Positions 35,935-61,640 of a stretch of DNA of 64,000 nucleotides are shown here, one piece after another. A program made the position numbers and the translations under genes. The DNA comes from an uncultured Candidatus Saccharibacteria bacterium. GTDB lineage: Bacteria > Patescibacteriota > Saccharimonadia > Saccharimonadales > AWTP1-31. The first letter of the stretch is position 1; the number at the start of each line of letters is the position of its first letter. The notes below the pieces were generated by a model. That model searched no databases, was not told where the DNA came from, and saw only the letters and a program-made list of their open reading frames with translations. The stretch covers positions 232,760 through 296,759 of the forward strand of contig CALCZR010000059.1 of assembly GCA_937903325.1 (NCBI GenBank). Reading direction: 5' to 3'.

Positions 35935-36361
35935 GTGAGAGTAACACAAAGAATATCTTCATTATCAGCGACCTTGCTATTGGTACTGTCTATGGCAGTA
36001 CCGTTTTTGAACCCACTGGTAGCGAATGCCTTCAGTGGATCAGGTGCGGGCAGTAGTGCTAGTCCATATGTAGTTACAACCTGTGCGCAGCTGCAATCCA
36101 TTGACCAGGATGCCCAGAACGAAGCAACCGAAGATAAGCGCTACGAGCTCGGTAACGATATAGACTGTTCCATGACCAACCCTGACGATCCAGATTGGAG
36201 CGATACAGGCACCTGGAGTGACGAGAAAGGTTTTGACCCAATTGGCGATAATTCACATCACTTCAATGCTCCTCAATAACCCTTACGCTGTAATTGGTCT
36301 GACAACTATGAGTGCCGCAACAATCTTCGTCATTTCAAAACGCACGAAAGTATCAAAATAA
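35935..36361 (+). pseudogene. Deletion remnant of a surface-protein gene (signal peptide plus first domain joined out of frame to a C-terminal anchor)
   Basis: The 114-aa ORF (GTG start) matches giant-protein residues about 158-230 (ANAFSGSGAGSSASPYVVTTCAQLQ...YELGNDIDC vs ASAFSGDGLGTEQSPYQIQTCIQLQ...YELAGPIDC). After its TAA, a different frame reads MLLNNPYAVIGLTTMSAATIFVISKRTKVSK*. This matches the anchor LLLNNPYVVVGLTSVSACALLCMSRRAGRNN* of 57930-59600. Confidence 0.6.
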
Positions 36362-36409
36362 ATCAAAATACTCCAACGTCTCACACATAATCTGCAGGGT
36401 GATATGGGC

Positions 36410-36415
36410 TATACT
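36410..36415 (+). promoter_or_regulatory. -10-like hexamer TATACT, 6 nt upstream of the mgtC ATG
   Basis: TATACT followed by GATTAG and then ATG (36422). Confidence 0.4.
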
Positions 36416-36421
36416 GATTAG

Positions 36422-36847
36422 ATGATAGATACACTTTTGTCCTCGAATGAATTCAAATTTTTTGTTGATCTGCTTCTGGCACTGATCTGCGGTTTACTAA
36501 TTGGCGGTGAGCGAGAACTGAAAAAGAAGCCAGCTGGTATTAGTACGCAGACTTTGGTGATTACTGGATCTATGATGTTCGCCTTTTTGTCTCAGACTGT
36601 TAATGTAGGCGATCCAACGCGTATTGCAGCTCAAATTGTTTCCGGCATAGGCTTCTTGGGCGCTGGCATAATCCTAAAATCTGAAACAAAAAAGACGGTG
36701 ACCAACGTAACTACTGCGGCCAGCATTTGGTATTCGGCGGGAGTAGGGATGGCGCTGGGCTTCAACTTTCATATTATCGCCGTCATGGCAGCAGTCTACG
36801 CTGTTTTGATATCGCGGATTCCACGTCTTAGTCGTAGTAACGACTAG
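36422..36847 (+). CDS. mgtC: MgtC/SapB family membrane protein
   Basis: LLALICGLLIGGERELKKKPAGISTQTLVITGSMMF...IVSGIGFLGAGIIL is a typical MgtC N-terminal domain. Confidence 0.8.
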   Translation: MIDTLLSSNEFKFFVDLLLALICGLLIGGERELKKKPAGISTQTLVITGSMMFAFLSQTVNVGDPTRIAAQIVSGIGFLGAGIILKSETKKTVTNVTTAASIWYSAGVGMALGFNFHIIAVMAAVYAVLISRIPRLSRSND

Positions 36848-36922
36848 CTAAGGTTAACCCCAAGAGTGGTTGCATAAGCATAAGAGGTGGGCTACAATAA
36901 ATTCGTTAAGTAAAAAATAAAC

Positions 36923-38620
36923 ATGTATAAAAAGTTATCAGTGAAATTCCTCATGAGTGCTGTCGTCAGTTTGGCGGCTGCGTTCGTGCTGCAAAACGGC
37001 CATGCTAGCGCCGCTACCATAACAGTTACTCCTGATGCAGTAGACCAGACCATCAACGGTAACTGTTCGCTATACGAAGCGGCAGAGGCAGCCAGTACTA
37101 ATGCCGCCGTTGATACTTGCACGGCAGGTTCAGGAGCTGACACTATTGACGTTCCGGATGGTACTTATGTGCTTGATAGTAATACCGCACTCTCATTATC
37201 GGATGGCGTGTTAAATGGTGCTTCACAAGCAGATACGATTATAGATGCCAACGGTACCGGCCTGGTATTTGTGGGTTCAGGCACTATAACGGTTACTGTA
37301 CAGAATCTGAGCATCATTGACCCTTATAGAGCCATAGACGTGTCTGGTCAGGACGTGAATATAACGATGGACAACGTCATTATCGATGGTGGGGCCAATG
37401 GTCCGTATATCCAAAGTAGCGCCAACGCCACCTTCACCATGACGAATTCCATCATTCGCAATCTTTCTAGTGCTAGTAGTGGTGACTATGGCTTAAGGCT
37501 CGACGGTATTGCTACCACTGTACTGGACGGCGTAGCTATATACGGCAATAATTTTAGTGGAACCAGTTTTACGGGTACGGCCGATATTCGCAGTCAAGAC
37601 ATTATCGCGAGCGACGTGGTAGTTTATGACAATGAGATCGCCGGAGGCAGTTTCTTCGCATTGTCAGGCCGGACGGTAGATGCCTCGGGCATCGTGGTGC
37701 GTGATAATACCAGTACTAGTGAAGGCGGAGCCGTCTTTATAGTGGGTAGCTACGACAGTGGGTCGTTTGAGGCAGATGTTACAAATGTTGCTGTGGTGCG
37801 CAACGAAGTTCCGGGCGGTTTGGTGGCTGGAGCTTTCTGCGATACGAGTTCTGCATCGTGTGCGGTGACAATGAGTAATATGACTGTCGCCGAGAACACC
37901 TCGTTGTATACAGCAATATTTCTCAATAATAGGGATGAACATCCTATGACAGGCGCATTACAGAATGTGACTATCGCCAATAATGTACGGGCTGGCAACA
38001 CAGGTGGTCCCACGTTCTCAGGCGGACTGCTAGTAGTGAGCGATGATGGTTTAGGCGGTGCACCAACAATGACCATACAGAATGTTGTGCTCGACAATAA
38101 TCTAGATGAAACTACCCCACGTAACTGTGTAGCGGCAAGTGATCCGTTTTTCAATTTAGTGTCCCTTGGCAGTAATGTATCATCCGACGCCACCTGTAAC
38201 AGCATGTTTAACCAGCCCAGTGATCTCAATAGTACAGATCCATTATTAGATGACCTAACAGAAGATAACGGAACGTGGGTCTTGCCACTTTTGTCTGGAT
38301 CACCAGCAATTAATAGTGGCGACACGATCGGGAGTATACTAACCGATCAGCGCGGCACATTGCGCCCTCAAGGTAGTGCATACGATAGGGGTGCTTATGA
38401 AGTACTCGGAGCCTCCATTCCTGACCCAGACCCAGATCCAACAGGCAATGGTGGTGGCAGTGGCGTCAATGCCGGATCTGGCCAAGCGGGGACCACACCA
38501 GGCGTGCCCAATACCGGTTTTCTTTTGCTTACCAATAACCCAGTGGCCGTACTTGTGCTCACATCGGCTTGCGCCGGAGCCATTCTCCTCCTTACTAAAA
38601 GAGCCAGCCGCAAATCCTAA
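36923..38620 (+). CDS. CSLREA-motif right-handed beta-helix surface protein with VPNTG sorting signal (paralog A1)
   Basis: Signal peptide. NGNCSLYEAAEAA...CTAGSGADTIDVPDGTYVL (CSLREA-type N-terminus). Beta-helix repeats. C-terminal DQRGTLRPQGSAYDRGAYEV (choice-of-anchor-Q-like). VPNTG at 38504-38518, followed by a hydrophobic stretch and KRASRKS. Confidence 0.8.
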   Translation: MYKKLSVKFLMSAVVSLAAAFVLQNGHASAATITVTPDAVDQTINGNCSLYEAAEAASTNAAVDTCTAGSGADTIDVPDGTYVLDSNTALSLSDGVLNGASQADTIIDANGTGLVFVGSGTITVTVQNLSIIDPYRAIDVSGQDVNITMDNVIIDGGANGPYIQSSANATFTMTNSIIRNLSSASSGDYGLRLDGIATTVLDGVAIYGNNFSGTSFTGTADIRSQDIIASDVVVYDNEIAGGSFFALSGRTVDASGIVVRDNTSTSEGGAVFIVGSYDSGSFEADVTNVAVVRNEVPGGLVAGAFCDTSSASCAVTMSNMTVAENTSLYTAIFLNNRDEHPMTGALQNVTIANNVRAGNTGGPTFSGGLLVVSDDGLGGAPTMTIQNVVLDNNLDETTPRNCVAASDPFFNLVSLGSNVSSDATCNSMFNQPSDLNSTDPLLDDLTEDNGTWVLPLLSGSPAINSGDTIGSILTDQRGTLRPQGSAYDRGAYEVLGASIPDPDPDPTGNGGGSGVNAGSGQAGTTPGVPNTGFLLLTNNPVAVLVLTSACAGAILLLTKRASRKS

Positions 38621-40463: not shown

Positions 40464-40865
40464 TTATTTGATGGTTACGCGGGCGGCTTGGGTGCGGTCT
40501 GTTTCGCTCAGGAGGATGGTAACTTTTTGATCTTTTTTGAGGTCTTTTGCCGTGACTTTTTTAGCCGCACGTACATAGGTGGTTTTGTCGGTAAGGGCTA
40601 TAGTCTGATCTTTCCCGGTTGCTAACTTTATTACTAATTGCTTGTCGCTGATCTTAGTAATGGTGCCGGTACTGCTACGCTGAAAAAAATTGGCAGCGTT
40701 TTTAAAGGCGTCGTCGATGGCCTGCGAATCAACGTGTTTGGCAGCTTCATCTTTTTGACCATGTCGATACCCTCGTTGGTAACCACCGTAGGCAGTAATT
40801 CCCAATGCAACTAGTGCAGCAGCTATCGAAAGAATAATGCCCTGTTGTTTCCTTGGTATCTTCAT
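40464..40865 (-). CDS. Membrane-anchored hypothetical protein
   Basis: 133 aa. TM helix GIILSIAAALVALGITAYGG followed by a small Lys-rich beta-type domain. Confidence 0.55.
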   Translation of the reverse strand: MKIPRKQQGIILSIAAALVALGITAYGGYQRGYRHGQKDEAAKHVDSQAIDDAFKNAANFFQRSSTGTITKISDKQLVIKLATGKDQTIALTDKTTYVRAAKKVTAKDLKKDQKVTILLSETDRTQAARVTIK

Positions 40866-40961
40866 ACTTATGCTTAATTGTACTGATCTGGCGGCATTTT
40901 ACAAAATAAGCTGCTAATAAGTTGCATCTCTAGTACAATAGAGGCAAGCATAAGAGTTTAT

Positions 40962-43900
40962 ATGAAGAAGGCAACAGTAAGAATTGTTCAGCGCAAACGG
41001 CTTGCCGATAAAGCCAATGGCCTAGGAGATAAAATATACCAGCAGCGGATCAAACTTCTGCCGGTTTTTGTCATGCTGGCGTCTGTTACGGCCTTGATAT
41101 ATCTGCGCGTTCAGCCAGAGTCCGCCAAGGTTGTCAGCCGCGTAATTGAATCCAGTTTGAGCCAAATAACTCGCATGTCATTTCTCTGGTCGCCGCTCGC
41201 AGGCTTGATCGCATTGTCTGCCGCGGCTTTGCTGTACATGTGGATGGACTACCAGCACCACAAAAAGCCTCTTATTCGTGTGTCGCCTAAAACAAAGTAC
41301 GGCATGTTGCACCATCTTCGGGTTGTTGTGTTGCCACGTTTCAAATACCGCTGGCGCCCTGCATTGTACTGGTTGGCCGTAGCAGAAGTTTGCGCTGCAG
41401 TCTTTATCGCAGTTGTCGCTATTGTGGGCGTGCCATCCGCTTCAGCTTTTTCAGGTGACGGCCTAGGTACCGAGCAAAGCCCGTACCAGATCCAAACGTG
41501 CATACAGTTACAGGAAATGCATGATGATCTTGATGGCCACTATGAACTGGCAGGACCCATAGACTGTACTGGAACGAGCTCGTGGAATGGGGGTAATGGA
41601 TTTTTAGCTATTGGCACAAGTTCTGGCAACGAATTTACGGGCACACTAGATGGGAAAGATTTTGCCGTAGATGGGCTATACCAGAGAGTTGTAGATAACG
41701 ACGCACCCTCTGGGCTACTGGGTTCGGTAGTGGGTGGAACGGTTCACAATCTAAAGCTCACCAATGTAGACATTGCCTCCAGTACGGGTGGATCTACAGT
41801 CGCTCCGTTCTCCTCCGAGATTTTAAACGGCCAATTGTCGGATATTTCTGTTACTGGAACAATACAGGCTACCGGTAATGATGGTGCAATATATACCTCT
41901 GGTTTCGCGGGCTTGGTCGCAGTGAGTACTGTTAGTCGGGTGAGCGTCAATGTTGCCATTGTTAATAACAGCGTTGATGACGATGATGAGATCGGTAAGG
42001 GAGCATGGTCTGCTGGCTTGGCATTTGTGCTGCAGATGTCTACGGTTACCGATTCCTACACTACCGGTACTATAGCCGGTAACTTTCCTGCGGGTGGCAC
42101 TGCTATGTACGCCGGTGGATTTGCTGGGCAGATAATGATGGGGTCAGTTAGTAATAGCTACAGCAGTATGTCGATCTCTATTACGCGAAATCCGAGCTTG
42201 GCCCCAGCCATTATGGTGGTTGGCGGTTTTACAGCTTTCGTAGCGGCTGCCGACATGAGTAATAATTTCGCTACGGGGCAGCAATCTATATCAGTGGGGA
42301 GTATGGTGGCAGACTATCGTGGTGGCTTGGTGGGAGGAGTGATGTTTGTTGAAGATGCCGATCCACCTTTCAATGAGAATATAACGGGTTCTAATAACTT
42401 CTATGATATTACGAGGGCTAATCAGGCTGGATGTGTCGGTGCATATGCTGGAGAGGAACTAGAAGTACCTGTGCCCGACCAAACTCCTGGTGGTTTCTGC
42501 ACGGCAGTAAATACCGGCAGTTCTCAGCCAAACTACTTCTTCAATAACTCCACCAACCCACCATTCAAAGTAGGAAGCACGCAGGTTTGGGATTTTACAA
42601 ATGTATGGCGAACGGTTAGTGGTGGAGCACCAATTTTTGGTACGCAAGTTCCTGGTGTGCCAGCACTACCGGGTAAGGTCCGTTCATTGACGACTTCTAG
42701 CACTGACGCTACCAGCTTAACGGCCCAGTGGCTTGCACCAAGTTCCAATGGTAATTCGGCCATTACTAACTATGCAGTTGCCTATAAGTTACATAGTGTA
42801 AGTACTTGGACGCCTGTAGCGCGAACGCCTTCGACCACCACTTCACAGCTGATTACTGGCTTAACGGGTGGGCAGCTATATGACATACGAGTGGCTGCCA
42901 TTAACACAGTTGGTCAGGGAGACTGGGAGACTACTCAGAATGTTGGCACTAGTCAGGTGCCATCGGCAGCTCGCAACCTAGTGGTTAGCGGTGTGGCCCA
43001 AACGGGGCAACTTGAGCCGTATTATTTTCCAAAGCTTGACTGGCAGGCTCCGGAAGTTGGCGCCCCCATCACCGACTACGTTATCCAGTACAAACCCAAT
43101 GCTGGGGAAGATTGGGACTTGATTGCAGATGATATGCAGGGCGAATTCGACTGGGCAGAAAACATTGGGTCCTGGACGACGCTCAACGACGGCGTAGGCA
43201 CGGCGCTTAGTTTTAATGCGAGTACTTCATCCGACGCCGACTTTATTGGCTTATTGGTTGCCAGTCTGCCCGGAGAGGTACGTGCCATAGGCGATATTGA
43301 ATTTCGAGTGGCAGCTGTTAACTCTTATGGTCAAGGTCCGTGGAGTAATCTTGATAGTTTCCAGGTATTCATTGGCTTGACCGCCTGCCAACAAATGCAT
43401 GATGTGCTCGATGAATATCCCGGCGGTGTTTTCCAGCTGCTTAACAATATCGATTGTAGTGACACCGTGAATTGGAATGGTGGCCAGGGTTGGGAGCCGA
43501 TTCAGGATGAGTTTACGCCATTCCAAGGAGATCTAGACGGCAACGGCTTCACTATTAGCAACTTACATATGGAGAACCAAGACGATTACGTAGTGGGCCT
43601 GTTTGCCTACGTCGAAAATTCAATAATTAAAGATCTGACCTTGAGTAATGTAGCTATCCGCTCACTCAGACAAGCTACGGTTTCTTCCATGGTAGGTCCT
43701 CTGGTGGGCGTAGCTCAAGGCGACACAATACTATCCAATGTGCATGTTACTGGCTCGGTCGTTGGGCCTCGAGGTGCTGGCGGCATTGTGGGAATAATGG
43801 GCAATCTGACAGGGTCGGTCACGTGGAGTAACTTGACGTTTACTGGGGTAGTAAAAGGACAGGAAATGGCTGGCGGATTGCTTGCTGGCTTTGGTACTCC

Positions 43901-46900
43901 CGGTCAATTAACTATCGAGAATTCACAAAGTCACGGTTCGTTGGAGGGTATTCAGGGGGCAGGTGGCGCAGTGGCCTTTGGTCAAGGGTTGTCGCTGTCT
44001 CATGTAACATCTGATATGTCTATACTCTCGGGTTGCAAGTCGGCGGGCGGGCTCATCGGTACCTTGCAAGTCGGCTCGTTAGCAGACTCTGAATATACCG
44101 GCTCTATCCAATGTACTGCAGAGAATGCCGGGTACTTTAGTCAGCCCACATCGGTAGCGGTTGACGCCCAGAATCAGGTGTACGTCTTGGGTCATACCAT
44201 CAGCAGTACTATCTACAAGTTTTCATCTAATGGTGATTTATTAGCGCAGTGGAATTTTGCAGAAGGTAACTCAACTAATGGGAACCCCAAGGGCATTGCC
44301 GTCGACGCGCAGTCTCGGGTATACGTCACCGATGACGCCTACGATGAAGTCCGAATCTTTAGCAGTTCAGGTGTGTTATTGGATACATGGCCGACGCCAG
44401 ACCCCGGTAAGTTAACGGTCGATGCTAATAATAACGTATATATTGTCAGTGGTGATAGCGTCCGGAAGTATACCCAAGACGGCAATTTGCAGCATACCTG
44501 GGACGGTGAAGGTGCTTTCGAGCAGTTATATGATGTAGCTGTTGCAAGTGACGGCCGTATCTATGCGGCGGATATTGGTCAAGATCGTATCCATGTGATG
44601 GACAGTGACGGGGAAGTGATTACGTCGTTCGATAGCGAAGGCGCGCCATCCGTAGAATTCCAAAGTCCGGCTGCAATCGTGTTGGATAGCGCAAACAACC
44701 TATATGTACTGAATGGCAGTGCGCACCATGTGGTCGTTTTTGACTCTTCCTACCAGCCTATCGGAGATTGGCAAACACCTAATAGCGAGGTATATTCCGG
44801 GTCAGACATGGCGATGCGCGCCGACGGCAAGCTAACCTTACTCGGTACAAAAGTATATCAACTTAGCAGTAATGGTACGGTAGACAGTCATTGGGGCGGC
44901 ATCAGCAACTGGTTTGGCTCTGATCCTGGCGGCATAGCAGGCGGTTTGGTAGGTGTGTATGGCGGCACTACAGAACCACTCACCATACTAAGAAGCGCCA
45001 GCACAGGTACCATTACTTCACTCGACGGTACGGGTAAAGGCATTACCGTAGGGGGATTACTTGGTGCGACTGGTCAAATCAGCGGTGTAACCATTGATGC
45101 CAGCCATCCAGAGCAGTCGCTGACTCATGGTGTAATCATCAATGACTCTAACTCATCAATGGACATTACTGCTGCGGGCCAAGTGATTGTGGCCGGTGGT
45201 TTGGTAGGTTACTCAGACATTTCTGATATCAATAACTCTTCGGCATCTGGCGATATTGCCGTGTCTCATGATGCAAACTTCGCCGTTATACAAAGTGGTA
45301 TGGCTGGCGGTTTCATCGGTACAGGACAAAGACTAACTCGCATACGTAATTCGCATGCTACGGGCCAAGTAGCCATGGAGGGCTTCATCCCGACTAATGG
45401 ACAGGGCCCAATCGTGGGTGGTTTGTCAGGTAGCTTGGCAGGCTGGACACATCTCGATAATGTCTATGCAACCGGCAGCGTGACCGTATCAGCCAATCAA
45501 GATTGTAACCCAGGGCAATGTGCAGAGCAGGTAAGTTCCTATGCTGCAGGCCTGGTTGGTTTAATGAGCTCAAAGCCAAGCATTCCGGCGCTGTCTGTCG
45601 TGAATAATGTCTATGCAACCGGAAGCGTCAACTATAGTGCTCAAAGATCGGGTGTTTTTGCTGGGGGGCTGATTGGGCAAGCACAAATGCAGTATTTACA
45701 GCTTGGTAGTGTCCACGCAAGTGGTAGCGTCAGTATTACGGGGGCTGATGTAGTTGCCTTTGCAGGAGGATTGTTTGGTACGCTGATGACTGATCGTGAC
45801 ACAACGGTTCAACGTTTGTATGCCACCGGCAGTGTAACTAACGGCGGTAGACTTTACAGCCTTGGCGGCTCACCTTCGAGTTCTGCAGGATTGATCGGGC
45901 TTATGTCAGGCCCCATTACGCTTCAGACCTCATATGCCACCGGGGATGTAGAAGGCCCTGGGGTGGTGGCGGGGCTGGTGGGTAATGCCATACCATTCGC
46001 CTATGCTCAAGGGGGTGGGCCTGCAGACGAAAGGACTATCGAAAATAGCTATGCAACGGGCAATGTCGCTGGCAAAAATAGCGAGATGTACTTCAGCGAG
46101 AATTCTGAAATTGGTGAAGGGTATGTGGAGTTTGGAGCTGTTGCGGGAGGGTTAGCAGGGTCTATTATCGAGACTAATGTTACTGCCACCTATGCCAGTG
46201 GCACGGTATCAAATGAGACACCAGAGTTTGCTGACACCGTTCCACTCGTATTCCAATCACTATATGGAACAGCTACCGGCGGCTTGGTCGGTTCGGTTAT
46301 GGTTTGGCCTCTCGAATCTGCACCGAATGATCTGACCAAGGTAACCAATTCTTTTAGTGCGACTACCATCCAAAATGGTGCAAGCGACCCTAAGGGATTA
46401 ATTGCGGGTAGGATTTTTAGATGGGTAGAAGAACCATATGACCAAAGCCAGCCGAGTCTCAACCCCGCAAATTTACTGGATAATAACTACTATGACGTAC
46501 AAGGCGGTGCGACCGTGCCCTGTGCTACAAATCAGTTGCTGGTTGTGGCCGAAAATACTGCAGACTCAGATTTACAATCCACAGAATTCAACGGCCAGGA
46601 GGCTTGCCATCCAGTTAACGCCAACAATCAAACGCCAAACTACTTCAAAAACAGTAACACTAATCCACCACTCGATACTTGGGATTTCTCGACACCAATT
46701 TGGTACAAGCACTTAGCTACCCACCCAACTTTTGTGGTAGGTGAGGCAGTCCCTGGGCCACCCCGAAACCTTGCTGGCGTACCAACTACTTCCAGTGTGG
46801 CACTGTCATGGCAAGCACCAAGTAGTGATGGCGGTAGTGCAATTACCAATTACCGAATTCAGTACAGAGTACACGATACCAATACGTGGAGTGAATATGA

Positions 46901-51403: not shown

Positions 51404-51476
51404 TAGACGAGTGTTCGACACTTTTACCTATTAATCTAAGATGATTATGGCTATTGTAAAATCTACGTAGTGGGTT

Positions 51477-51482
51477 TAGTAT
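51477..51482 (+). promoter_or_regulatory. -10-like hexamer TAGTAT, 6 nt upstream of the ATG at 51489
   Basis: TAGTAT followed by GCCAAT and then ATG. Confidence 0.35.
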
Positions 51483-51488
51483 GCCAAT

Positions 51489-52712
51489 ATGTATAAAAAT
51501 AAAAAAAATCTTACAAAATTAAACCAGCAGGGGATAGCTCATGTCTTTCTGGTGTTCCTAGTGCTAGTCGTTGTCGGTTGCATAGGCTTTGCAGGTTGGC
51601 AGGTGTTTCGCACTAATCGTAATAAAGTTCGGGTAGGCGACCCGGTAAATCAGTTAAAAACAGTCCTGAATAACTGTAAAGGTAACGGTCCGGTAACTAT
51701 GACCCATATGCCCATGGACATGAAAGACGTCAACGCTGTCATTCCTATCGGAGCGCTGGCTGGTGCCCATGTTACACCTATTGATCACCTGTATTTCTAC
51801 CCTAAGGACATGCGGAATCGTGATGCTGCGCCAGTGTACGCCATGGCAGATGGCTACATCGTGTCCATGCAAGAGCGCACCCAGAATGTCGATGCAGGCA
51901 CATCCCAGAAAGCCGAATACCGCATCGAAATTCAGCACAACTGCGACGTAGTAAGTTATTTCGACCTGCTAACTAGCCTAGACGGTTCTATAAAGGATAA
52001 GCTAAAGCCAGGTGGCCAGATGCATGTACCGGTAAAGGCTGGGCAGGTAATCGGACGGGTGGGTGCTCAGTCGCTGGATACTGCAATATATAACTACAGC
52101 ATGAAGCTCAAAGGTTTTGTGAATCCCGATTCTTATAACGCTGAACCTTGGAAGATTCATACCGACGACTTCTTTAAGTACTTTGAAGGTAACCTCAAAG
52201 AGCAGATGCTTGCTAAGAACGTTCGTAAGGCCGAGCCACGCGGCGGCAAAATAGACTATGACATTGCTGGCAAGTTGGTCGGTAACTGGTTCGAGATTGG
52301 CACCAATGGCTACGCCGGCGCCAAAGAATTCCAGAATGGCAATAACCCCGGCGGTGGTAAAGGCTACTGGAATGGTCACTTCTCTATTACTCCTGACGTG
52401 GTTGACCCAACTGTCACCGATATATCTTTTGGTTATTATGACGGCAGGGCCCAGCAATTTTCTGCCAAAGATGGCTCTCCTGACCCGGCAACCATTAGCT
52501 CTGCAGACGGTGTGATGAAGTACGAGTTAGTGCAGTTTATTTCGCCATCCCCATCCCCCACAGGGTCTGTGATGCAACGACAACAAACCGTTCGAGGCGT
52601 CGTGCTACTAGAGGTCATGGATGGCAATAAGCTCAAGATGGAAGCCTTTCCAGGTAAGACAGCCCTACAGGTATCAGGCTTTACTACTGCCGCTAAAACA
52701 TATACACGCTAA
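51489..52712 (+). CDS. Membrane-anchored hypothetical protein (possible degenerate M23/LytM-like barrel)
   Basis: N-terminal anchor QQGIAHVFLVFLVLVVVGCIGFAGWQVF. PVYAMADGYIV...IEIQHNCDVVSYFDLL...VKAGQVIGRVG loosely resembles M23 strand order, but no HxH motif is seen. Confidence 0.55.
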   Translation: MYKNKKNLTKLNQQGIAHVFLVFLVLVVVGCIGFAGWQVFRTNRNKVRVGDPVNQLKTVLNNCKGNGPVTMTHMPMDMKDVNAVIPIGALAGAHVTPIDHLYFYPKDMRNRDAAPVYAMADGYIVSMQERTQNVDAGTSQKAEYRIEIQHNCDVVSYFDLLTSLDGSIKDKLKPGGQMHVPVKAGQVIGRVGAQSLDTAIYNYSMKLKGFVNPDSYNAEPWKIHTDDFFKYFEGNLKEQMLAKNVRKAEPRGGKIDYDIAGKLVGNWFEIGTNGYAGAKEFQNGNNPGGGKGYWNGHFSITPDVVDPTVTDISFGYYDGRAQQFSAKDGSPDPATISSADGVMKYELVQFISPSPSPTGSVMQRQQTVRGVVLLEVMDGNKLKMEAFPGKTALQVSGFTTAAKTYTR

Positions 52713-52754
52713 CCGTTTATGGTAATCTAAGAGTAATAATTAAGGATCTCTTGT

Positions 52755-54416
52755 ATGAAGATTAAAAACAAAATGACTCACACAAAAACACTAACCGGCA
52801 GAGTACTGGTGCTTGTGCTAGCAATGCTATTCGCTGGAGCAGGGCTGTATCACCTCCCACTGGTCCACGCAGATCCACCGGCAACAGTTGGTGCGCCTGC
52901 TCAAGAAATGTGCGAGGCAGGTGGTTCTACTAACGTCCGGTGGGATAACTTAAACCATGGTTCGCCAGTAGTTCGGCCAACTATATCGGCGCTAAGTATT
53001 AAAGCGAGCTCAAACGATCCTGAGGAAGTAATCACTGGCTTTGAAGATCCCGATGTTGGAGATATTGGTGCAACCATTTGTCCGAATGTGGCATTGGGAC
53101 GACGATCTGGCCTCAATATCTATACAAATACTGTTAACGGCGGAGACTCTGACCTGGCAAATGCTGAAACGCCAGCTGGTCACCCCATTACTGCTAACTC
53201 AGAAATCACTATCACCATTGATCGTGGGGACTTTGGCGCCCTGGCAGAGTTCTATAGTTTTTCACTTATTCATGGTCACGTAGTTGACTGGGTGACGGCA
53301 GATCTTGGCACGGAAGACGCTATGTTGAGTGTGACGCTTAATCCGGTACGTACGCCTTTCGGTGACAACAGTGAGGATTTTGGTGGTTGTACAGCTACCC
53401 CTCCTATGTGTGGTGCCCTAATATCAAGCGCAGATGCACTTAGTGCCTCGTTAGACATGACATTTACTACTTCAGGAGATGAAGGTCAGCCAAATGAGCA
53501 CTATGACATCAACGGACATTACAGTGAGATGCGCGGTTCGTTCTTTGCCGTAACTGGCGCCATGGGCGGCTGGGCACAAGCGGTTGGTCCTGGCGGTCAG
53601 CCTCGATCGGTACGTGCTACCTTGGGTGGTCCTCACTTGCTTGCCACTGCATCACAGCAGTCAATTAACGATCCAGAAAATGCTGCACCGGAAGATCTCA
53701 ATACCGGAAGTCTGCAAGCATTCATGCCTGATGACGTAATCGAAAGTGTGTTTGAAACAACTGCCGATCAGCTAACCGCTGAATCGCTCAGTGTCATTAA
53801 GTCTGAAACGGGCGCAGATGACGAATCATCCGAATTCGGTTTTGCCCAAGTGGATGGCGGCATCATGATTACTGTTGACGGGTTCCACTTCTCTTCACCA
53901 GCATTCAACATCGGCCTTGCTGGCTTCAATAATGGTGGCGATGGAGACGGTGAAGGTGGTGGAGATAGTGACACTTCCAGACTGATTAATTTAGAAGGCG
54001 GCGCCAAGGCCAGTCTAGAAACACCAGACGGTACGGTTATTACCAGCTTTGGTGCTTCGAAAGAATCAGCTCTAGCCGACCAAGACGCTGGCTATTCATA
54101 CCCACTTGGTCTCGTTAACTTTAAGTTCAACGTACCCAATGGCTCAACACAGCGCGTTAACCTTGCATTCCTGACAGATCTCAAGCCAAATCAAGTCGTG
54201 CTACGAAAGTACAACCCTAACACTAAAGCTTACGCAAACGTCAGCTCAGCCACTATTACCGAAGACATGTTTGATGGCCAGCACGTGCTTAACATTAGCT
54301 ACGATATCACCGACAACGGCAATCTAGACCAAGACACCGTACTTGGCACCATCACTGACCCCGTCGGCCTCGGCGTCTTGGAAGTGGCCGCCCCAAACAC
54401 TGGTTTCCGCAGATAG
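52755..54416 (+). CDS. Secreted protein ending in APNTGFRR* (sorting motif without a hydrophobic anchor)
   Basis: Signal peptide VLVLVLAMLFAGAGLY. C-terminal domain YPLGLVNFKF...LTDLKPNQVVLRKYNPNTKAY...ITDNGNLDQDTVLGTITDPVGL is homologous to 2149-2430. APNTG at 54390-54404, followed only by FRR and a stop. Confidence 0.7.
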   Translation: MKIKNKMTHTKTLTGRVLVLVLAMLFAGAGLYHLPLVHADPPATVGAPAQEMCEAGGSTNVRWDNLNHGSPVVRPTISALSIKASSNDPEEVITGFEDPDVGDIGATICPNVALGRRSGLNIYTNTVNGGDSDLANAETPAGHPITANSEITITIDRGDFGALAEFYSFSLIHGHVVDWVTADLGTEDAMLSVTLNPVRTPFGDNSEDFGGCTATPPMCGALISSADALSASLDMTFTTSGDEGQPNEHYDINGHYSEMRGSFFAVTGAMGGWAQAVGPGGQPRSVRATLGGPHLLATASQQSINDPENAAPEDLNTGSLQAFMPDDVIESVFETTADQLTAESLSVIKSETGADDESSEFGFAQVDGGIMITVDGFHFSSPAFNIGLAGFNNGGDGDGEGGGDSDTSRLINLEGGAKASLETPDGTVITSFGASKESALADQDAGYSYPLGLVNFKFNVPNGSTQRVNLAFLTDLKPNQVVLRKYNPNTKAYANVSSATITEDMFDGQHVLNISYDITDNGNLDQDTVLGTITDPVGLGVLEVAAPNTGFRR

Positions 54417-54425
54417 TAGGTTTGG

Positions 54426-54431
54426 TACACT
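54426..54431 (+). promoter_or_regulatory. -10-like hexamer TACACT, 6 nt upstream of the ATG at 54438
   Basis: TACACT followed by GGTTGT and then ATG. Confidence 0.35.
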
Positions 54432-54437
54432 GGTTGT

Positions 54438-54860
54438 ATGGTTGAACTAAAGACTCAGAAGAACGATGCAGACGTACTCGATTTCATTCACTCCATTGAG
54501 GATGAAACTAAACAGCAGGATAGCCTAAAACTCCTAAAGATATTTGGTGAGGTAACAGGACATGAGCCCAAAATGTGGGGCACAGCCATCATTGGCTTCG
54601 ACCAATACCACTACAAATCAGAACGCAGTACTCAAGAAGGAGACTGGCCATTGGTTGCCTTCTCGCCCCGAAAAGCAGCACTGACGCTGTATTTAACAGA
54701 TGGTGGATTCGTTCTAGATGCGAACCTACTTGAAAAGCTTGGCAAGCATAAGCTAGGCAAGGGTTGTTTATACGTTAAGCGTTTGAGTGATGTCGACAAC
54801 AACGTTCTGAAGCAACTCATTACTGCCAGTTACCAAGCATCCAAAAAACAGCACGCTTAA
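54438..54860 (+). CDS. DUF1801 (YdhG-like) domain protein
   Basis: DVLDFIHSIEDETKQQDSLKLLKIF...EPKMWGTAIIGF...FSPRKAALTLYL fits my recollection of DUF1801. Confidence 0.6.
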   Translation: MVELKTQKNDADVLDFIHSIEDETKQQDSLKLLKIFGEVTGHEPKMWGTAIIGFDQYHYKSERSTQEGDWPLVAFSPRKAALTLYLTDGGFVLDANLLEKLGKHKLGKGCLYVKRLSDVDNNVLKQLITASYQASKKQHA

Positions 54861-56348: not shown

Positions 56349-57854
56349 ATGCAAAGCATCCTCAATCTCACCAAAACAAACAAACTAATCCTAGCCACCT
56401 TCGCTTTCTTGGCAGTGCTAGCTTTTGGTAGCGGACGGGCACACGCTGCTACTTTAACAGTATCTGGTGGTTGTACTCTTGACGAGGCAATTACTTCAGT
56501 TAACACCACAACTAGTGAGCCGGGCTGTAGCCCGAGTGGTGTATATGGATCGAGCGATACTATCAATATTCCTGCCGGGACGATTACGCTTAGCAGCGAT
56601 ATCGATATGATTACGGTGCCGGTGACAGTTCAAGGTGCTGGTATGAACCAGACTACTATAGATGGCAACGCCGGACAATACAGCGGATTATCTGCAGATA
56701 ATACCAATATAACTATTAAAGATCTCAAGATCACGGCCTATAGGACAGCGGCTATTTATGCGCAAAGGAGCAACGTTACACTCAATAATATTGAGGTCGA
56801 TGGGGCGGATGTCCAAGAGACTACAAGCGGTTCGCGTATGTATGGAATCTACATCAATAACTTCACCTCCGATACTCATACAGTAACAGCGGACTCTGTA
56901 TATATACACGGTATCCACGCTACAAGTACTAATGGTGAGGGAGGGCTATTCGTATATATGGTTTCTCAGTCAGGTGGTGGGACAACCAACGCTACCCTCA
57001 GCAATACAACATTAGATGATATATCGGCCTTTGATGGAACCCCAATGAATGGCTTCTCCATGGCGATTCTCGGTAGCAGGGGGACGGTTAACAGCACCAT
57101 TACTAATGCGACTATAAACGACATTACGTCTAATACGCTTGTCGCTCCATTTGCCAGTATCGCGTTTGCTGAAAGCGGTTCCGCTACGGTAACCACTAAT
57201 GTTTATAACGCTACCATTACAGGGCTCCGTGGACAGACGGGCAGTGGCGTGCCTGTAGCGGGCATAAAGTCGGCAGCCTTTTATTCTGCTACAGCTGGCT
57301 ATAACAGCGGCGATGTTGGGACGGCAACCGTTAACGTCGGTAATAGCTTGTTCGCAGACAATCTTAACGACGGAGTATCATCTAACTGCTCCACCGGAGA
57401 CATGACTTCAGTACTCGGTGGTTCTGGGTCTGGAGTCCCAACTATAACATCAGACGATTATAATATTTCTGACGATGCTACATGTACAAGCTTTACGGGG
57501 GCTCACGACCAACAAAACGTTAGCAATATCATTAGTACTCTTGGCCCGCTCCAAAACAATGGCGGCAACGTTCCTACTCGAGCATTGTTAGACGGCTCAC
57601 CAGCAATCTCAGCCGGCGGTACTGTTCTCGGCGTAACCACCGACGCTCGAGGTATCGCCCGCCCCGGCACCTGCCCATCCGTCGGAGCCTTCCAATTCGA
57701 AGGTGCTGTTTGTTCGGCTTCGACAACTAACGCAGGTGGAGCTAACGCTGGTGCACCCAACACTGGTATTGGTTCGGTGTCGATTCTAGCAACTGCCATT
57801 GTAGGTCTGTTAGGTCTTGCTGCGCTTGGGTATGCTTTTGCTAAGCGAGCCTAG
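56349..57854 (+). CDS. CSLREA-family beta-helix surface protein with APNTG sorting signal (paralog B2)
   Basis: Signal peptide. ATLTVSGGCTLDEAITSVN. Beta-helix repeats. TDARGIARPGTCPSVGAFQFE. APNTG at 57753-57767, followed by a hydrophobic stretch and AKRA. Confidence 0.8.
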   Translation: MQSILNLTKTNKLILATFAFLAVLAFGSGRAHAATLTVSGGCTLDEAITSVNTTTSEPGCSPSGVYGSSDTINIPAGTITLSSDIDMITVPVTVQGAGMNQTTIDGNAGQYSGLSADNTNITIKDLKITAYRTAAIYAQRSNVTLNNIEVDGADVQETTSGSRMYGIYINNFTSDTHTVTADSVYIHGIHATSTNGEGGLFVYMVSQSGGGTTNATLSNTTLDDISAFDGTPMNGFSMAILGSRGTVNSTITNATINDITSNTLVAPFASIAFAESGSATVTTNVYNATITGLRGQTGSGVPVAGIKSAAFYSATAGYNSGDVGTATVNVGNSLFADNLNDGVSSNCSTGDMTSVLGGSGSGVPTITSDDYNISDDATCTSFTGAHDQQNVSNIISTLGPLQNNGGNVPTRALLDGSPAISAGGTVLGVTTDARGIARPGTCPSVGAFQFEGAVCSASTTNAGGANAGAPNTGIGSVSILATAIVGLLGLAALGYAFAKRA

Positions 57855-57929: not shown

Positions 57930-59600
57930 ATGAAAACACACAAAATATTATTAGCTTTGTTGGTACTCATCGGAACCTTCTATCTTTTGGACGGTCGAGT
58001 TGAAGCAGCAACTATAACGGTCAACAGTACAGATGACACCGTTGTGTATGACGGAACATGCACCTTGCGTGAAGCCGTGATCGCCGCAGATACCGATACA
58101 AGTGCTGGTGCGGGCGAGTGTGCGGCAGGTAGTGGCAATGATGTCATTAACATACCGAACGGAATCTACACACTAACGTCTGATCTTGATCTTGGTGGAA
58201 CGAGCATTACTCTGAACGGTACCTGGCGTATGGGAACTCAAATTAAAGGTAATGGACAGTATGGGCTGCACTATGACGGTGGATCAGGGCTCCGTGATTT
58301 GACCCTCCAGCACCTAATGGTTACAGAGACGACAGGACTGCGCAGTACTGCAGCAGCAGCTGCCAACGTAATTATAGATGACACAGTCTGGACCGCTAAC
58401 TCAATCTCTACGTCAGAGGAGGGTGTTATAAATCTTGATGGCTATGGTGGAACTACGGACTTTATGCTGTCAAATTCGGCAATCTACGCCAATAACGGGG
58501 TTGAGGGGTGCGGCGTGCGAGCTAGGTTTATGGCGGTGGTTACAATTGCCAGTACACAGATATATGCCAATGAATGTAGCGATAGTAACTCAGATGATGC
58601 ATCCGTACTCTACTTACAAGGGCAAGAGGCCATCGGCCTTACCGAACTGGATGTGTACGAAAATGTGGTTAGCATTGCAGTTAGCATATCGAGCCCGGAT
58701 ATAGATATAGGTTACACCGATGTTTACGACAATATAGGCGGTGGTATATCGGCGAATGTAAACGGTGCGTTGGGTGCCTTTAGCTTACACCATTCGTCCG
58801 TGGTTAATAATAATGGTGACGTAGCGATGTTAATTGGCAACGATGGGGGTGGCTATGTAGTGAATGTCAGTAACTTTACTATTGCCGGTAACACTTCTTC
58901 GTATTCAGCATTCACCTTCTTTAGTGACGAAACCAATCCAATAAGCGGAACGGTTAAGAATGTCACCGTCGCCAACAATATACGCTCAGGTAACCTAGGT
59001 TTTTCTGTACCTGCTGCCATGACGGTTCTATCTCAAAGCCAGATTGCTCCGACCTTCACCTTAGAAAACGTATTGTTCGCACATAATCTTGACGAAACGA
59101 CGCCACGGAATTGTTCGACGCCAGCGGTTCCGATATTGTTCCAGCCTATCTCTATTGGTCATAATCTGAGTGATGACGATACCTGTGGTGATGCCTTTGA
59201 CCAATCGAGTGATATAAATAACGTCAACGCACATCTTGGCACGCTGACGCAGGACAATGCTACCTGGGTCGTTCCCTTACAGGCGAGTTCTCCAGCTAAC
59301 GATGGAGGAGCAACGGTCGCAGGAATGATTGATGACCAAAGGAGTACGGATCGTCCACAAAATGGAGCCTTTGATATTGGCGCATACGAAGTGCTCGGGG
59401 CATATACTCCTGACCCAGGCGTAGGTAATGGTTCAAACAATGGTTCGAATGCCGGTGCGGCTCAAACGCCAGTAGTCCCAGGCGTGCCAGACACTGGCTT
59501 CCAGTTACTCTTAAACAATCCCTATGTCGTAGTTGGGCTGACATCTGTGAGTGCCTGTGCGTTACTATGTATGTCTCGACGAGCCGGGCGTAACAACTAG
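57930..59600 (+). CDS. CSLREA-motif beta-helix surface protein with VPDTG sorting signal (paralog A3)
   Basis: DGTCTLREAVIAA...CAAGSGNDVINIPNGIYTL. DDQRSTDRPQNGAFDIGAYEV. VPDTG at 59484-59498, followed by a hydrophobic stretch and SRRAGRNN. Confidence 0.8.
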   Translation: MKTHKILLALLVLIGTFYLLDGRVEAATITVNSTDDTVVYDGTCTLREAVIAADTDTSAGAGECAAGSGNDVINIPNGIYTLTSDLDLGGTSITLNGTWRMGTQIKGNGQYGLHYDGGSGLRDLTLQHLMVTETTGLRSTAAAAANVIIDDTVWTANSISTSEEGVINLDGYGGTTDFMLSNSAIYANNGVEGCGVRARFMAVVTIASTQIYANECSDSNSDDASVLYLQGQEAIGLTELDVYENVVSIAVSISSPDIDIGYTDVYDNIGGGISANVNGALGAFSLHHSSVVNNNGDVAMLIGNDGGGYVVNVSNFTIAGNTSSYSAFTFFSDETNPISGTVKNVTVANNIRSGNLGFSVPAAMTVLSQSQIAPTFTLENVLFAHNLDETTPRNCSTPAVPILFQPISIGHNLSDDDTCGDAFDQSSDINNVNAHLGTLTQDNATWVVPLQASSPANDGGATVAGMIDDQRSTDRPQNGAFDIGAYEVLGAYTPDPGVGNGSNNGSNAGAAQTPVVPGVPDTGFQLLLNNPYVVVGLTSVSACALLCMSRRAGRNN

Positions 59601-59689
59601 TAGACCAGGTGCCTCTGGGTCTGACTATGGTTGGCACCTACACTAGGCTTTAGTATGGTTGTCTATGCGCTTCCGCAAGCGTTATGCGG

Positions 59690-59695
59690 TAAAAT
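59690..59695 (+). promoter_or_regulatory. -10-like hexamer TAAAAT, 6 nt upstream of the sortase ATG at 59702
   Basis: TAAAAT followed by AGGGTA and then ATG. Confidence 0.4.
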
Positions 59696-59701
59696 AGGGT
59701 A

Positions 59702-60403
59702 ATGGCCCTCAACCAGAAAAGTTCAAAGAACAAATCCAAAAAGTCCGTCGTCGGTCGTAAATGGCGCGCGCTTTCGCTTCGACAAAAAAGTCGGTTCATT
59801 GCCTTCGTTGTTGGCTTGCTCCTGATTAGTGTCGGTATAAACGCCATCCTCAAGTGGAACAAGATTCAGCACGGCGGTGTTCCGTCTGGGCATACCGTGG
59901 CCACAGTATCGACTGATCAGCCAAGTGAAGAGCTGCCATCTAAAAGCTATAGTGTGCCAGCGGATAAGCCGCTGTCTATCCAGCTTCCGTCCATTAAGGC
60001 AGAAGGCTTCATCCAGCAAGTCGGTGCAGACAAGAACAACCAAATGGTGGTGCCCGACAATGTCCATATGGCGGGTTGGTATACCGGCAGTGTGCTACCT
60101 GGCGCTGATGGGTTGAGCATTCTGGACGGTCATGTCCACGGCCTGTATGCCAAAGGCATCTTTTATAACGTTAGTAAACTCAAGACAGGCGACAGATTTA
60201 GTGTTACCTTTGGTGATAAAAGCGTCAAAAACTTCATGGTCAAGAAAGTTCAGACAACCACTGTTGAAGAGGCAGATACGGCTTTGTATGTGCGTGATAA
60301 TTCCATTGCGAAACAACTTAATCTCATAACCTGTGGCGGTAAGTATGACAAAGCTGCTAAAACATATGATGCTCGGGTGATAGTCGTTGCCGAAGCTATC
60401 TAG
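59702..60403 (+). CDS. Sortase (class E/F-like), paralog 2
   Basis: TM anchor. ILDGHVHG (His), LNLITCGG (Cys), DARVIVVA (Arg). Roughly half the residues are identical to 50753-51403 by eye. Confidence 0.85.
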   Translation: MALNQKSSKNKSKKSVVGRKWRALSLRQKSRFIAFVVGLLLISVGINAILKWNKIQHGGVPSGHTVATVSTDQPSEELPSKSYSVPADKPLSIQLPSIKAEGFIQQVGADKNNQMVVPDNVHMAGWYTGSVLPGADGLSILDGHVHGLYAKGIFYNVSKLKTGDRFSVTFGDKSVKNFMVKKVQTTTVEEADTALYVRDNSIAKQLNLITCGGKYDKAAKTYDARVIVVAEAI

Positions 60404-60470
60404 TTGCTACTGGCGTGAAACATCGGTATAATTACGGTTAAGGTTATTTATTCTTAACAAGAGGCGATGT

Positions 60471-61640
60471 ATGAGGGTAAAACAAAAATATTTGTTTGCA
60501 GGTTTTGGATTGTTGATCGGGTTATTAAGCTTTGCATCACTCGGAAGCCAGGCATTTGCTGCGCCTGCGACATTCACGGTTACAACCGTTGCCGACACTG
60601 GCGTAGGTTCTCTAAGGGCAGCAATAGAGTCCGCGAATGGTAATAGTAACGCATCCGACATGGATGTTATTACCTTCAATATTGCTGGAAGTGGGGTACA
60701 CACCATTAATCTTGTAACTGAACTGCCAGATATTACCCAAAAAGTGACCATCAACGGCTACTCGCAAACTGGTGCATCCGCAAATACGACAATTAGTCCG
60801 GCGCCAATGGATTCTGTCATTAAGATCGAGATCAACGCTAACGCCCTTAGCGGTCATCCACGAGGACTGAACTTCGAAAGTGGTGCTGCGCAGTCGGTTG
60901 TTCGAGGGCTTTCGGTGTACGGTGCAGAAACCAATATCTCGGTTCAGGCCAGCAACGTAGAAGTAAAGGGCAACTATATTAGTGTGGACGCATCTGGCCT
61001 TGCTATACCTAATGGTAGTAATGATAATGACACCAATAACGCCAGAGGGATCCAATTCCACACTAGCGGATCAGGACTAGCTATTGGTGGCGTTAATCCT
61101 GCAGACAGAAATATTATTACTAATAAACACGAGACTAATGTCGGGGCAATTGTCGTAGATCGTAATGACGCACTCATCTATGGCAATTACATTGGAATTG
61201 GTCGAGACGGAGTATCTGACCTTGGCGGGACACAGGGAATAAGCAGTGTTATTTCCGGCGGCGGATTGATTGTCGGCGGTACAAGCACAGGCATGCGAAA
61301 CGTAATATCTGGATCCAGCATAACTCAGGTGAATCTTGTTGGCGCGAAAGCGAAAGTCCAGAACAATCTTATAGGCACCGATTACACGGGTGCTGTAAGT
61401 AGTGGCATCACTAGTGGCGCAGGCATTAGTATTCCCGGCAGTACCGAGTCACTCATTGGCGGCATTGGAGCAAACGAAGGGAACGTTATTAAAGGAGTGA
61501 GTGGTGCGGGCGTGGCATCAGTTGACCTCGACTTCACGATTACGTGGCGCCGCCTGCGTGATAAGATCTTCCATGAGGTGATGGCTGGCATGTGCGATTT
61601 CTTCAATTGCACGATTGAAGGCCTCTTCGTTTACTGCTGA
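60471..61640 (+). CDS. CSLREA-related beta-helix protein, 3'-truncated (no choice-of-anchor-Q end, no sorting signal)
   Basis: Signal peptide. TFTVTTVADTGVGSLRAAIESANGN...ITFNIAGSGVHTINL. The family-like sequence stops near 61515. The last roughly 40 codons are simply the antisense of the convergent DUF2277 gene. Confidence 0.55.
   Translation: MRVKQKYLFAGFGLLIGLLSFASLGSQAFAAPATFTVTTVADTGVGSLRAAIESANGNSNASDMDVITFNIAGSGVHTINLVTELPDITQKVTINGYSQTGASANTTISPAPMDSVIKIEINANALSGHPRGLNFESGAAQSVVRGLSVYGAETNISVQASNVEVKGNYISVDASGLAIPNGSNDNDTNNARGIQFHTSGSGLAIGGVNPADRNIITNKHETNVGAIVVDRNDALIYGNYIGIGRDGVSDLGGTQGISSVISGGGLIVGGTSTGMRNVISGSSITQVNLVGAKAKVQNNLIGTDYTGAVSSGITSGAGISIPGSTESLIGGIGANEGNVIKGVSGAGVASVDLDFTITWRRLRDKIFHEVMAGMCDFFNCTIEGLFVYC

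Follow-up and report, generated by a model that had tools for sequence, protein, structure and literature searches.

Old beta-helix paralogs and recurrent gene lesions in a probable chromosomal surface-protein locus of Candidatus Saccharibacteria

Cultivated Saccharibacteria live attached to host bacteria and, with one exception, the surface molecules by which Saccharibacteria make contact with their hosts are, to our knowledge, largely unknown. That exception is type IV pili (PMC11623550). Described systems that bear on the locus analyzed here are RbtA, a beta-helix protein of the Acinetobacter baumannii cell surface (PMC12643943), and the C-peptide/SGO_1180 circuit of Streptococcus gordonii (summarised in PMC11326707). 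We analyzed a stretch of 64,000 nucleotides (hereafter the window) from an uncultured Candidatus Saccharibacteria bacterium, in which the region 35.9–61.7 kb contains three genes of an A type (A1, A2 and A3), two of a B type (B1 and B2) and a gene C, along with a giant sensor histidine kinase and two sortases. An original prediction, read from the DNA alone, had described the region as a fast-evolving, possibly phase- or antigen-variable repertoire of sortase-anchored surface proteins. Our results indicate that it is probably a chromosomal surface-protein locus of Candidatus Saccharibacteria (TM7) that is stable within the species, and that its three broken genes are real lesions, fixed as far as is visible among near-identical sequences.

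By comparing the proteins over their full length, A1, A2 and A3 were confirmed as paralogs (identity of 41–46% for A1–A2, 35–37% for A1–A3 and 50–54% for A2–A3; BLAST E-values from 1e-83 to 0), as were B1 and B2 (40–47%). The alignment between the A and B types was weak yet significant (A1–B2: 25% over 553 columns, E=1e-14). Common to A1–A3 are C[ST]L.EA, CxAGSG.D.I..P.G.Y.L, a beta-helix body and DQR[GS]..RPQ...D.GAYE, and all three end in VP[ND]TGF, a transmembrane (TM) helix and a basic tail; four cysteines, C48, C66, C402 and C425, are invariant in the family alignment. The choice-of-anchor Q model (choice_anch_Q, NCBIfam NF041518; curated cut-off 25 bits) scored 60.9, 55.5 and 43.5 bits in A1, A2 and A3, 52.8 bits in the C-terminal fragment of B1 and 62.6 bits in B2, with no match in C, and the domain ends 25–45 residues ahead of VPNTGF, APNTGI or LAETG. 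In the A-like relatives P0006, P0007 and P0010, an LAxTG motif with TM helix and tail takes the place of PNTG. Regarding the N-terminus, the CSLREA_Nterm model (TIGR04214; curated cut-off 25 bits) was passed only by A3 (30.6 bits for the full protein, 32.5 bits for the N-terminal 100 residues); C reached 11.3 bits, and A1, A2, B1 and B2 gave no match at E≤10. Of the two domain names given in the original prediction, choice-of-anchor Q is thus correct for five genes, and CSLREA formally for A3 alone. The motif C-[ST]-L-x-E-A had been ascribed to all six genes; literally, it reads CSLYEA in A1 and A2, CTLREA in A3 and CTLDEA in B2, but CTITIA in B1 and, without Cys, GSLRAA in C. A Pfam scan of the six genes gave nothing. 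Within these limits, the A and B genes of this Saccharibacteria locus add new members to the choice-of-anchor Q/CSLREA beta-helix proteins, a group that is catalogued but uncharacterised.

The description of six paralogs is weakest for C, which gave no BLASTP match to A or B. Alignment of the A-family and C-family profiles by hhalign was confined to the signal peptide and cap, i.e. the first ~75 residues (89% probability). The intact relatives of C (P0095, P0096 and P0099; 590–610 residues) are without choice-of-anchor Q and carry another C-terminal domain (LDTADSPSNxYRVEFFA...), followed by LASTG and a TM helix. Judged from these alignments, paralogy between gene C and the A or B genes is not demonstrable, and C shares the N-terminal cap only.

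An AlphaFold2 model of A1 was obtained from a 26-sequence alignment (mean predicted local distance difference test score, pLDDT, 87.3; predicted template modelling score, pTM, 0.81). After the signal peptide, the model has a helix at residues 50–59 starting in the CSLYEA motif, a continuous beta-helix at residues ~74–391, an ordered but irregular choice-of-anchor Q region up to residue ~495, and a low-confidence stretch at 497–536, taken as a disordered linker, ahead of the TM helix. A protein of this family would thus consist of a Sec signal peptide, a short cap helix with C[ST]L.EA, a body of ~320 residues folded as a right-handed parallel beta-helix, a choice-of-anchor Q domain predicted to close the helix at its C-terminal side, and a Gly/Ser/Pro-rich linker with the sortase-type signal after it. 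A second conserved Cys lies 18 residues further on than that of the cap motif and a disulfide probably forms there; C48, C66, C402 and C425 would pair into cap disulfides.

In a Foldseek search of the PDB with the A1 model, the best match was RbtA of Acinetobacter (9cdv, E=9e-8), followed by the mannuronan C-5 epimerases AlgE4 and AlgE6, pectate lyase Pel9A, GH87 glucanases and PL6 lyases, with the pneumococcal adhesin PfbA at a lower rank. At the sequence level, neither the A-family profile nor the A3 cap peptide found more than chance matches in the PDB. The RbtA model TIGR04212, which has an equivalog cut-off of 295 bits and is accompanied by a GlyGly-CTERM signal, matched A1–A3 weakly at the N-terminus (11.9–19.8 bits). 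Because this is the fold of polysaccharide-binding and -modifying proteins and of RbtA, and because cultivated Saccharibacteria lead a host-attached life, the likeliest role of the proteins would be to bind or modify glycans at their own or the host surface. The modelled fold points to surface glycan binding or modification in general, and is compatible with an adhesin as much as with an enzyme. That the beta-helix proteins are surface-anchored carbohydrate-active enzymes (lyases, epimerases or glycosidases) working on host wall polysaccharide, and not passive adhesins, is possible, though we consider it rather unlikely. The enzymes that come after RbtA in the Foldseek list agree with such an activity, as do the weak M23-peptidase-like and DUF1996 proteins encoded in the same locus. 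However, the proteins matched no enzyme family of Pfam or NCBIfam and no solved enzyme in sequence, their identity to the enzymes of that fold is 12–17% with low structural scores, and the conserved columns are mostly an Asn/Gly/Thr ladder and the terminal caps, in which no catalytic constellation was recognisable.

The three broken genes were then characterized at the DNA level. B1 had been called frameshifted, and indeed one G is gone at 49658/49659 (GGTGGT to GGTGT); restoring it gives an open reading frame (ORF) of 548 residues, which is collinear with B2, and tblastn of B2 against the B1 DNA placed the frame switch between 49658 and 49661. The lesion lies in the context GTC GGT G/TT CCG (slash, missing base), neither a repeat tract nor a homopolymer. 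Gene C had been called truncated, and compared with its relatives ~213 residues including the sorting signal are missing: homology stops at residue ~350–374 (61535–61592), the remaining sequence up to the stop at 61640 is an unrelated tail, and no trace of the lost residues was found in the 190 bp up to the next gene. The proposed deletion remnant (35935–36358) is real as well, but its origin is different from that assumed, since its head resembles the first ectodomain of the giant kinase (BLASTP, 34% over 64 residues, E=2e-5) and not the CSLREA family. The remnant tail overlaps the stop codon of the head in another frame and resembles the anchor of the A1 counterpart in L106, the corresponding locus of a related species (tblastx, 61% over 26 residues, E=3e-7); all sequence between head and tail, including PNTGF, is deleted. 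A scan of metagenome contigs of the Joint Genome Institute (JGI) with the 114-residue ORF gave no relative that might represent the ancestor, and in L106 the gene that precedes MgtC shows no homology to the remnant. We regard B1, with its 1-nt deletion, C, which has lost its 3' end, and the gene at 35935–36358, with a large internal deletion, as probable dead relics fixed in the population, which would not be switchable genes.

In order to see how far the lesions recur, contigs were collected by exact-protein look-up and through 90% clusters, which retrieve only identical or near-identical proteins. Besides the 425,635-bp NCBI contig, A1 was found on 12 contigs, the 365-residue fragment of B1 on 19, the 389-residue C on 12 and the 114-residue ORF of the remnant on at least 7 independently assembled contigs. 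The 26 contigs that were fetched are 99.96–100% identical to the window across all three lesions, and the 90% clusters added two strain variants with one or two substitutions and the same truncated lengths (for instance, one substitution and unchanged length in C). In total, 28 contigs from 16 samples showed 99.84–100% identity, with 6 mismatches and 0 insertions or deletions (indels) in ~132 kb. The B1 lesion was present in all 19 contigs with the fragment ORF, including 10 of 10 whose DNA was read, and a search of 5.8 billion proteins with the repaired B1 found no intact allele, nothing above 53% identity apart from the fragment itself. In the JGI metagenome contigs, a DNA pattern of the B1 site with an optional extra base remained unmatched, the organism being outside that collection. 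In everything that could be sampled among such identical or near-identical sequences, the locus was invariant across strains, an outcome that the original prediction had itself listed as speaking against it.

These data bear directly on the view that the region is a phase- or antigen-variable repertoire, switched by frameshift or recombination, with each broken copy representing an 'off' state or a donor cassette. Several paralogous surface genes do lie in one locus, three of the genes are disrupted, and the divergence of the A and B proteins exceeds that of the adjacent MgtC. However, the frameshift stands in GGTGTT outside any repeat tract; no simple sequence repeat or homopolymer was found at the B1 site (GTCGGTG/TTCC) and no array by Tandem Repeats Finder inside the A, B or C genes. 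Within 35.7–62 kb the tandem repeats are trivial, the inverted repeats are ≤30 nt with 73–90% complementarity and do not flank promoters, and the best DNA repeat between paralogs is 67 nt at 67–70% identity; the only longer repeat of the whole window is an 80-nt coding homology (63342–63575 versus 51489–52712). Gene conversion would be without a substrate, because the paralogs share no DNA of more than 70% identity longer than 67 nt. Among the large ORFs scanned, no recombinase, transposase or reverse transcriptase domain was detected, and the counts of promoter-like and terminator-like sites equal the shuffled expectation, which makes them uninformative. Identical lesions in every contig, the lack of a single indel in ~132 kb and the failure to find an intact B1 allele are also contrary to switching, and no on/off or mosaic alleles were seen in the 28 contigs as assembled and retrieved by exact-protein look-up. 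The reading of phase or antigenic variation is thus largely refuted already, and we hold it to be very unlikely. Recombination breakpoints among A1, A2 and A3 would have no meaning at 35–54% amino-acid identity and without shared DNA stretches.

It is similarly improbable, to a high degree, that B1 is still functional, either by ribosomal frameshifting or as a secreted anchorless beta-helix plus a small tail-anchored fragment. Both halves keep long open frames with a single visible lesion, and the 3' part retains an intact tail and its choice-of-anchor Q score; the frameshift site, however, offers neither a slippery heptamer nor a stimulatory element, the cap motif is degenerate, and the 5' body is only 42% identical to its positional counterpart in a related species compared with 79–86% for the neighbours, consistent with relaxed constraint. 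Finally, an assembly or sequencing artefact is barely credible in spite of the source contig appearing to be of the metagenome-assembled genome (MAG) type, in which frameshifts are a frequent artefact, since the 365-, 389- and 114-residue ORFs recur on their 19, 12 and at least 7 independent contigs from 16 samples and several projects with identical DNA over the lesions, and the frameshift is outside a homopolymer; the broken genes are genuine.

We next consider the age of the paralogs, estimated from Nei–Gojobori synonymous differences (pS). For every paralog pair pS was 0.77–0.83, and over all paralog and cross-species pairs 0.68–0.83; it is saturated for all A, B and sortase pairs, the exceptions being sm133 and the kinase N-terminus, two short neighbouring genes. 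Because of this saturation the dN/dS ratio is meaningless for A and B, and nonsynonymous divergence (dN) was compared instead; with dS saturated, the overall ratio must nevertheless be well below 1. A1 is 68% identical to its counterpart in L106 and 46% to A2, and A2 is 65% identical to its counterpart in L111, a locus from the same sample as L106, and 54% to A3. Since A1, A2 and B2 are closer to their counterparts in another species (57–68%) than to their own paralogs, the duplications predate the split from the nearest sampled species. The dN values from the relative were 0.23 for A1, 0.24 for A2 and 0.35 for B2, as compared with 0.054 for MgtC, 0.285 for the small protein upstream of the kinase and 0.22 for the kinase N-terminus. 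Protein divergence of A and B is thus ~4–6 times that of MgtC, and 'fast-evolving' is apt in relation to MgtC; relative to the other exported proteins of the locus, they evolve no faster. The family would have arisen by old duplications, followed by slow gene birth, relocation and death.

Comparison with related species gave a corresponding picture. L106 (MgtC 92% identical) contains two caU-type (choice-of-anchor U) proteins, MgtC, the A1 counterpart, the small protein and the giant kinase, without the remnant and without A2. In L111 (292–1457 and 1515–2675), the A2 counterpart (63–65%) adjoins a 5'-truncated B2 counterpart; the latter is without its first ~115 residues and abuts Replic_Relax-like and InPase-like genes, which suggests disruption by a mobile or plasmid-derived insertion. 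L108/L109 share the left flank of the window (ABC transporter, Dus) and continue with a Crp-like gene, an A-like gene (44% identical to A1), a sortase, a 935-residue caU-type protein and, after other genes, the small protein and the giant kinase. Gene order between the window (40464–54860) and L113 (919–14581) is conserved: in L113 the small protein (minus strand) is followed by the giant kinase, the B-type gene P0217, a sortase, a 284-residue protein, caU and DUF1801 (identity of 53% for the kinase, 42–61% for the B gene, 82% for sortase 1, 85% for caU and 86% for DUF1801), and the gene for the 155-residue protein is on the other side of the kinase. P0217 is an intact gene of 540 residues with an LAETG–TM–tail anchor, and as L113 holds it at the same place, B1 is the frameshifted positional counterpart of an intact gene. 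More distant Saccharibacteria (L027–L029) have one A-like gene and none of these neighbours. As read from these gene orders, this is a conserved chromosomal site whose gene content changes between species by relocation, loss and decay. The turnover previously proposed is thus borne out as differences between species, whereas 'ongoing' expansion is not supported, the paralogs being old and the locus invariant within the sampled strains.

That the locus encodes Sec-exported proteins with sortase-type anchors, clustered with a giant histidine kinase and two sortases, is supported by the signals, domains and sortase genes read in the sequence. At their very C-terminal end, A1–A3 and B2 have a pentapeptide motif followed by a hydrophobic helix and a basic tail, and B1 carries LAETG, a TM helix and a long tail; none of the NCBIfam LPXTG-anchor models was matched by the A or B proteins. 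Both sortases pass the Pfam model Sortase (PF04203; 64.5 and 59.7 bits, cut-off 26.6), and would cleave the signals and attach the proteins to the cell envelope. The caU proteins end differently, in [AV]PNTGF, 2–6 mostly basic residues and a stop, without a hydrophobic helix (window 54390–54416, L106 1250–4138 and 2–1204, L113 12488–14137); its conservation across species marks this ending as a sorting signal of a TM-less type, as opposed to a truncation. The caU gene at 52755–54416 had been a candidate for a fourth broken gene and was ruled out, as the same TM-less ending is kept in L106 and L113.

A further C-terminal module, composed of LAxTG, a TM helix and a ~55-residue tail, ends B1, P0006, P0007, P0010 and the protein encoded at 937–2709 (module at 2458–2706). 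This last protein is a surface protein with a Vgb (streptogramin lyase)-like beta-propeller, choice-of-anchor U and an LANTG–TM–tail anchor, and as it sits 33 kb upstream, surface-protein genes extend beyond the interval originally flagged. The same TM helix and tail form the first membrane pass of the giant kinase (residues ~79–133; 44% over 39 residues to the B1 C-terminus, E=1e-10). The tail follows the pattern D[YF]x[RK]H[KR][KR]PL..DP.V.Y...HH.K.V..P...[KR]YR...G[VI][RH][KR]F, and no Pfam or NCBIfam model covers the module. A profile search gave 190 matches in 1.84 billion representative proteins, at the extreme C-terminus of proteins of 400–870 residues, at residues ~70–150 of giants of 1400–2600 residues, or as stand-alone proteins of 70–130 residues; among C-terminal and short matches whose tail core was found by the pattern, LA[NEKDV]TG was the upstream motif in 37 of 46 recognised motifs. 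In the window and in L113 the conserved core runs from the small protein through the giant kinase and the tail-anchored B-type protein to the sortase, the L113 sortase likewise following the tail-anchored B gene. By analogy, the kinase of this core might serve in a circuit to monitor the processing by sortase, the membrane peptide left after cleavage binding the kinase or the partner of its N-terminus, a proposal we rate as improbable; if true, Saccharibacteria would have in the tail module a sorting and signalling element that is so far undescribed.

The features of the region are summarized in Table 1. Every ORF that the original prediction had placed here was found at its position, and nearly all of the genes are on the plus strand. 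The guanine-plus-cytosine content is even across the whole window (0.45–0.51), and signs of a mobile island were absent from it, with no tRNA genes and no compositional signal. The closest genomic relatives of the A genes are Saccharibacteria MAGs, NCBI labels the B-family relatives Candidatus Saccharibacteria, and two further B paralogs (P0242 and P0244) are located elsewhere on the same 425,635-bp contig.

Table 1. Positions of the genes, gene remnants and sequence motifs in the 35.9–61.7 kb region (window coordinates)
Feature	Position	Strand	Remarks
Remnant head, 114-residue ORF	35935–36279	+	Signal peptide and ~80 residues like the first ectodomain of the giant kinase; premature stop
Remnant tail, A-type membrane anchor	36266–36358	+	MLLNNPYAVIGLTTMSAATIFVISKRTKVSK; other frame than head; PNTGF motif lost
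MgtC-family membrane protein	36422–36847	+	Conserved locus marker; 92% identical in L106
A1, 565 residues	36923–38620	+	Signal peptide, CSLYEA cap (37064–37081), beta-helix, choice-of-anchor Q; VPNTGF (38504–38521), then TM helix and basic tail
A2, 571 residues	38709–40424	+	Architecture like A1
Small membrane-anchored protein, 133 residues	40464–40865	-	Directly upstream of the giant kinase in all relatives read
Giant sensor histidine kinase, 2536 residues	40962–48572	+	Ectodomain with M26_N/GLUG-like, FN3 and NHL regions; first TM helix and conserved tail motif at 41196–41360; C-terminal HATPase_c
B1 pseudogene, 5' part, 365 residues	48588–49685	+	Cap degenerated to CTITIA; 1-nt deletion at 49658/49659
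B1 pseudogene, 3' part	49661–50233	+	-1 frame; choice-of-anchor Q, LAETG, TM helix; ORF in gene list 49787–50233; conserved 55-residue tail module 49991–50230
155-residue protein	Between B1 and sortase 1
Sortase 1, 216 residues	50753–51403	+	Best match class F
Weak M23-peptidase-like protein	51489–52712
Choice-of-anchor U (caU) protein, 553 residues	52755–54416	+	Ends APNTGFRR-stop, without TM helix; gene intact
DUF1801 protein	After the 553-residue caU protein
DUF1996 protein	Between the DUF1801 gene and B2	-
B2, 501 residues	56349–57854	+	CTLDEA cap (56472–56489), beta-helix, choice-of-anchor Q; APNTGI (57753–57770) and TM helix
A3, 556 residues	57930–59600	+	CTLREA (58059–58076), choice-of-anchor Q, VPDTGF, TM helix
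Sortase 2, 233 residues	59702–60403	+	43% identical to sortase 1; best match class F
C, 389 residues	60471–61640	+	3'-truncated, different beta-helix family; GSLRAA cap without Cys

Two further observations were made outside the region. At 13585–19353, two Wzy_C (O-antigen ligase-like) genes and two penicillin-binding transpeptidases provide a context of envelope biogenesis. At 63342–63575 on the minus strand, a 77-residue ORF combines an N-terminal TM region with the last 27 residues of a paralog of the M23-like protein (81% identical to the 51489–52712 gene over these 27 residues; 80 nt at 76% DNA identity), and is possibly a fourth relic, formed by in-frame internal deletion, or a mini-protein.

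Several points weigh against reading the region as a stable locus of sortase-anchored, glycan-directed beta-helix proteins. The template modelling scores of the A1 model to beta-helices in the PDB are low (0.34–0.43), and the fold match says little on the substrate. The sortases score 97.2 and 113.8 bits, below the class F cut-off of 166 bits (NF033748), class F being the best match for both, and we infer wall linkage, sortase cleavage and the ligand from sequence. Exact-protein look-up biases the strain comparison to identical sequences, and diverged strains or minority alleles may vary. In addition, with dS saturated, diversifying selection may act at particular sites of A and B.

The present work supplies candidate contact molecules of Saccharibacteria, namely three A-type and one intact B-type beta-helix protein, the caU proteins, the two sortases and the 2536-residue sensor kinase with its very large ectodomain. 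It also separates the parts that are conserved across species (the kinase, the tail-anchored B gene, the sortase and a caU protein) from others that are dispensable. The genes, motifs and broken copies of the original prediction have stood, and the membership of C, the breadth of CSLREA, the origin of the remnant and the variable repertoire have not; the outcome is mainly a correction, in that the broken genes appear as pseudogenes of an ordinary kind, fixed in a reduced genome, and give no evidence of a switching system. We regard it as a useful annotation of a poorly known lineage and not as a new kind of system.

Compared with known systems, the locus resembles contingency loci such as opa and pilE–pilS of Neisseria or vsp and vlp of Mycoplasma in having several paralogous surface-protein genes, some of them disrupted, but shows none of the machinery that defines them: repeat tracts, invertases and silent cassettes are absent, and no heterogeneity was seen within populations. 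With the LPXTG proteins of Gram-positive bacteria and their class E/F sortases, it has in common tripartite signals and sortase genes in the same locus; on the other hand, its motifs are [VA]P[ND]TG[FI] or LAxTG, its sortases fall below the class F cut-off, one class of its proteins has a conserved 55-residue cytoplasmic tail, and another (caU) has no TM helix. For the kinase and the leftover peptide, the C-peptide/SGO_1180 circuit of S. gordonii is the proposed analogue. With RbtA, which the A1 model matches best in structure, the similarity is confined to the fold: the proteins of the locus carry sortase-type signals in place of a GlyGly-CTERM/rhombosortase signal and have no match in the PDB at the sequence level. 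With regard to CSLREA proteins, all A copies and B2 bear the C-[ST]-L-x-E-A cap, and A3 passes TIGR04214, but A1, A2, B1, B2 and C fall short of its cut-off. The closest likeness is to choice-of-anchor Q proteins, whose model five genes of the locus pass, with the domain directly upstream of the C-terminal sorting signal; matching the name of that family, one lineage joins the same body either to xPNTG–TM or to LAxTG–TM–tail. Differences from that family are that the genes of the locus combine the domain with Saccharibacteria-specific variants of the sorting signal, and that C stands outside it.

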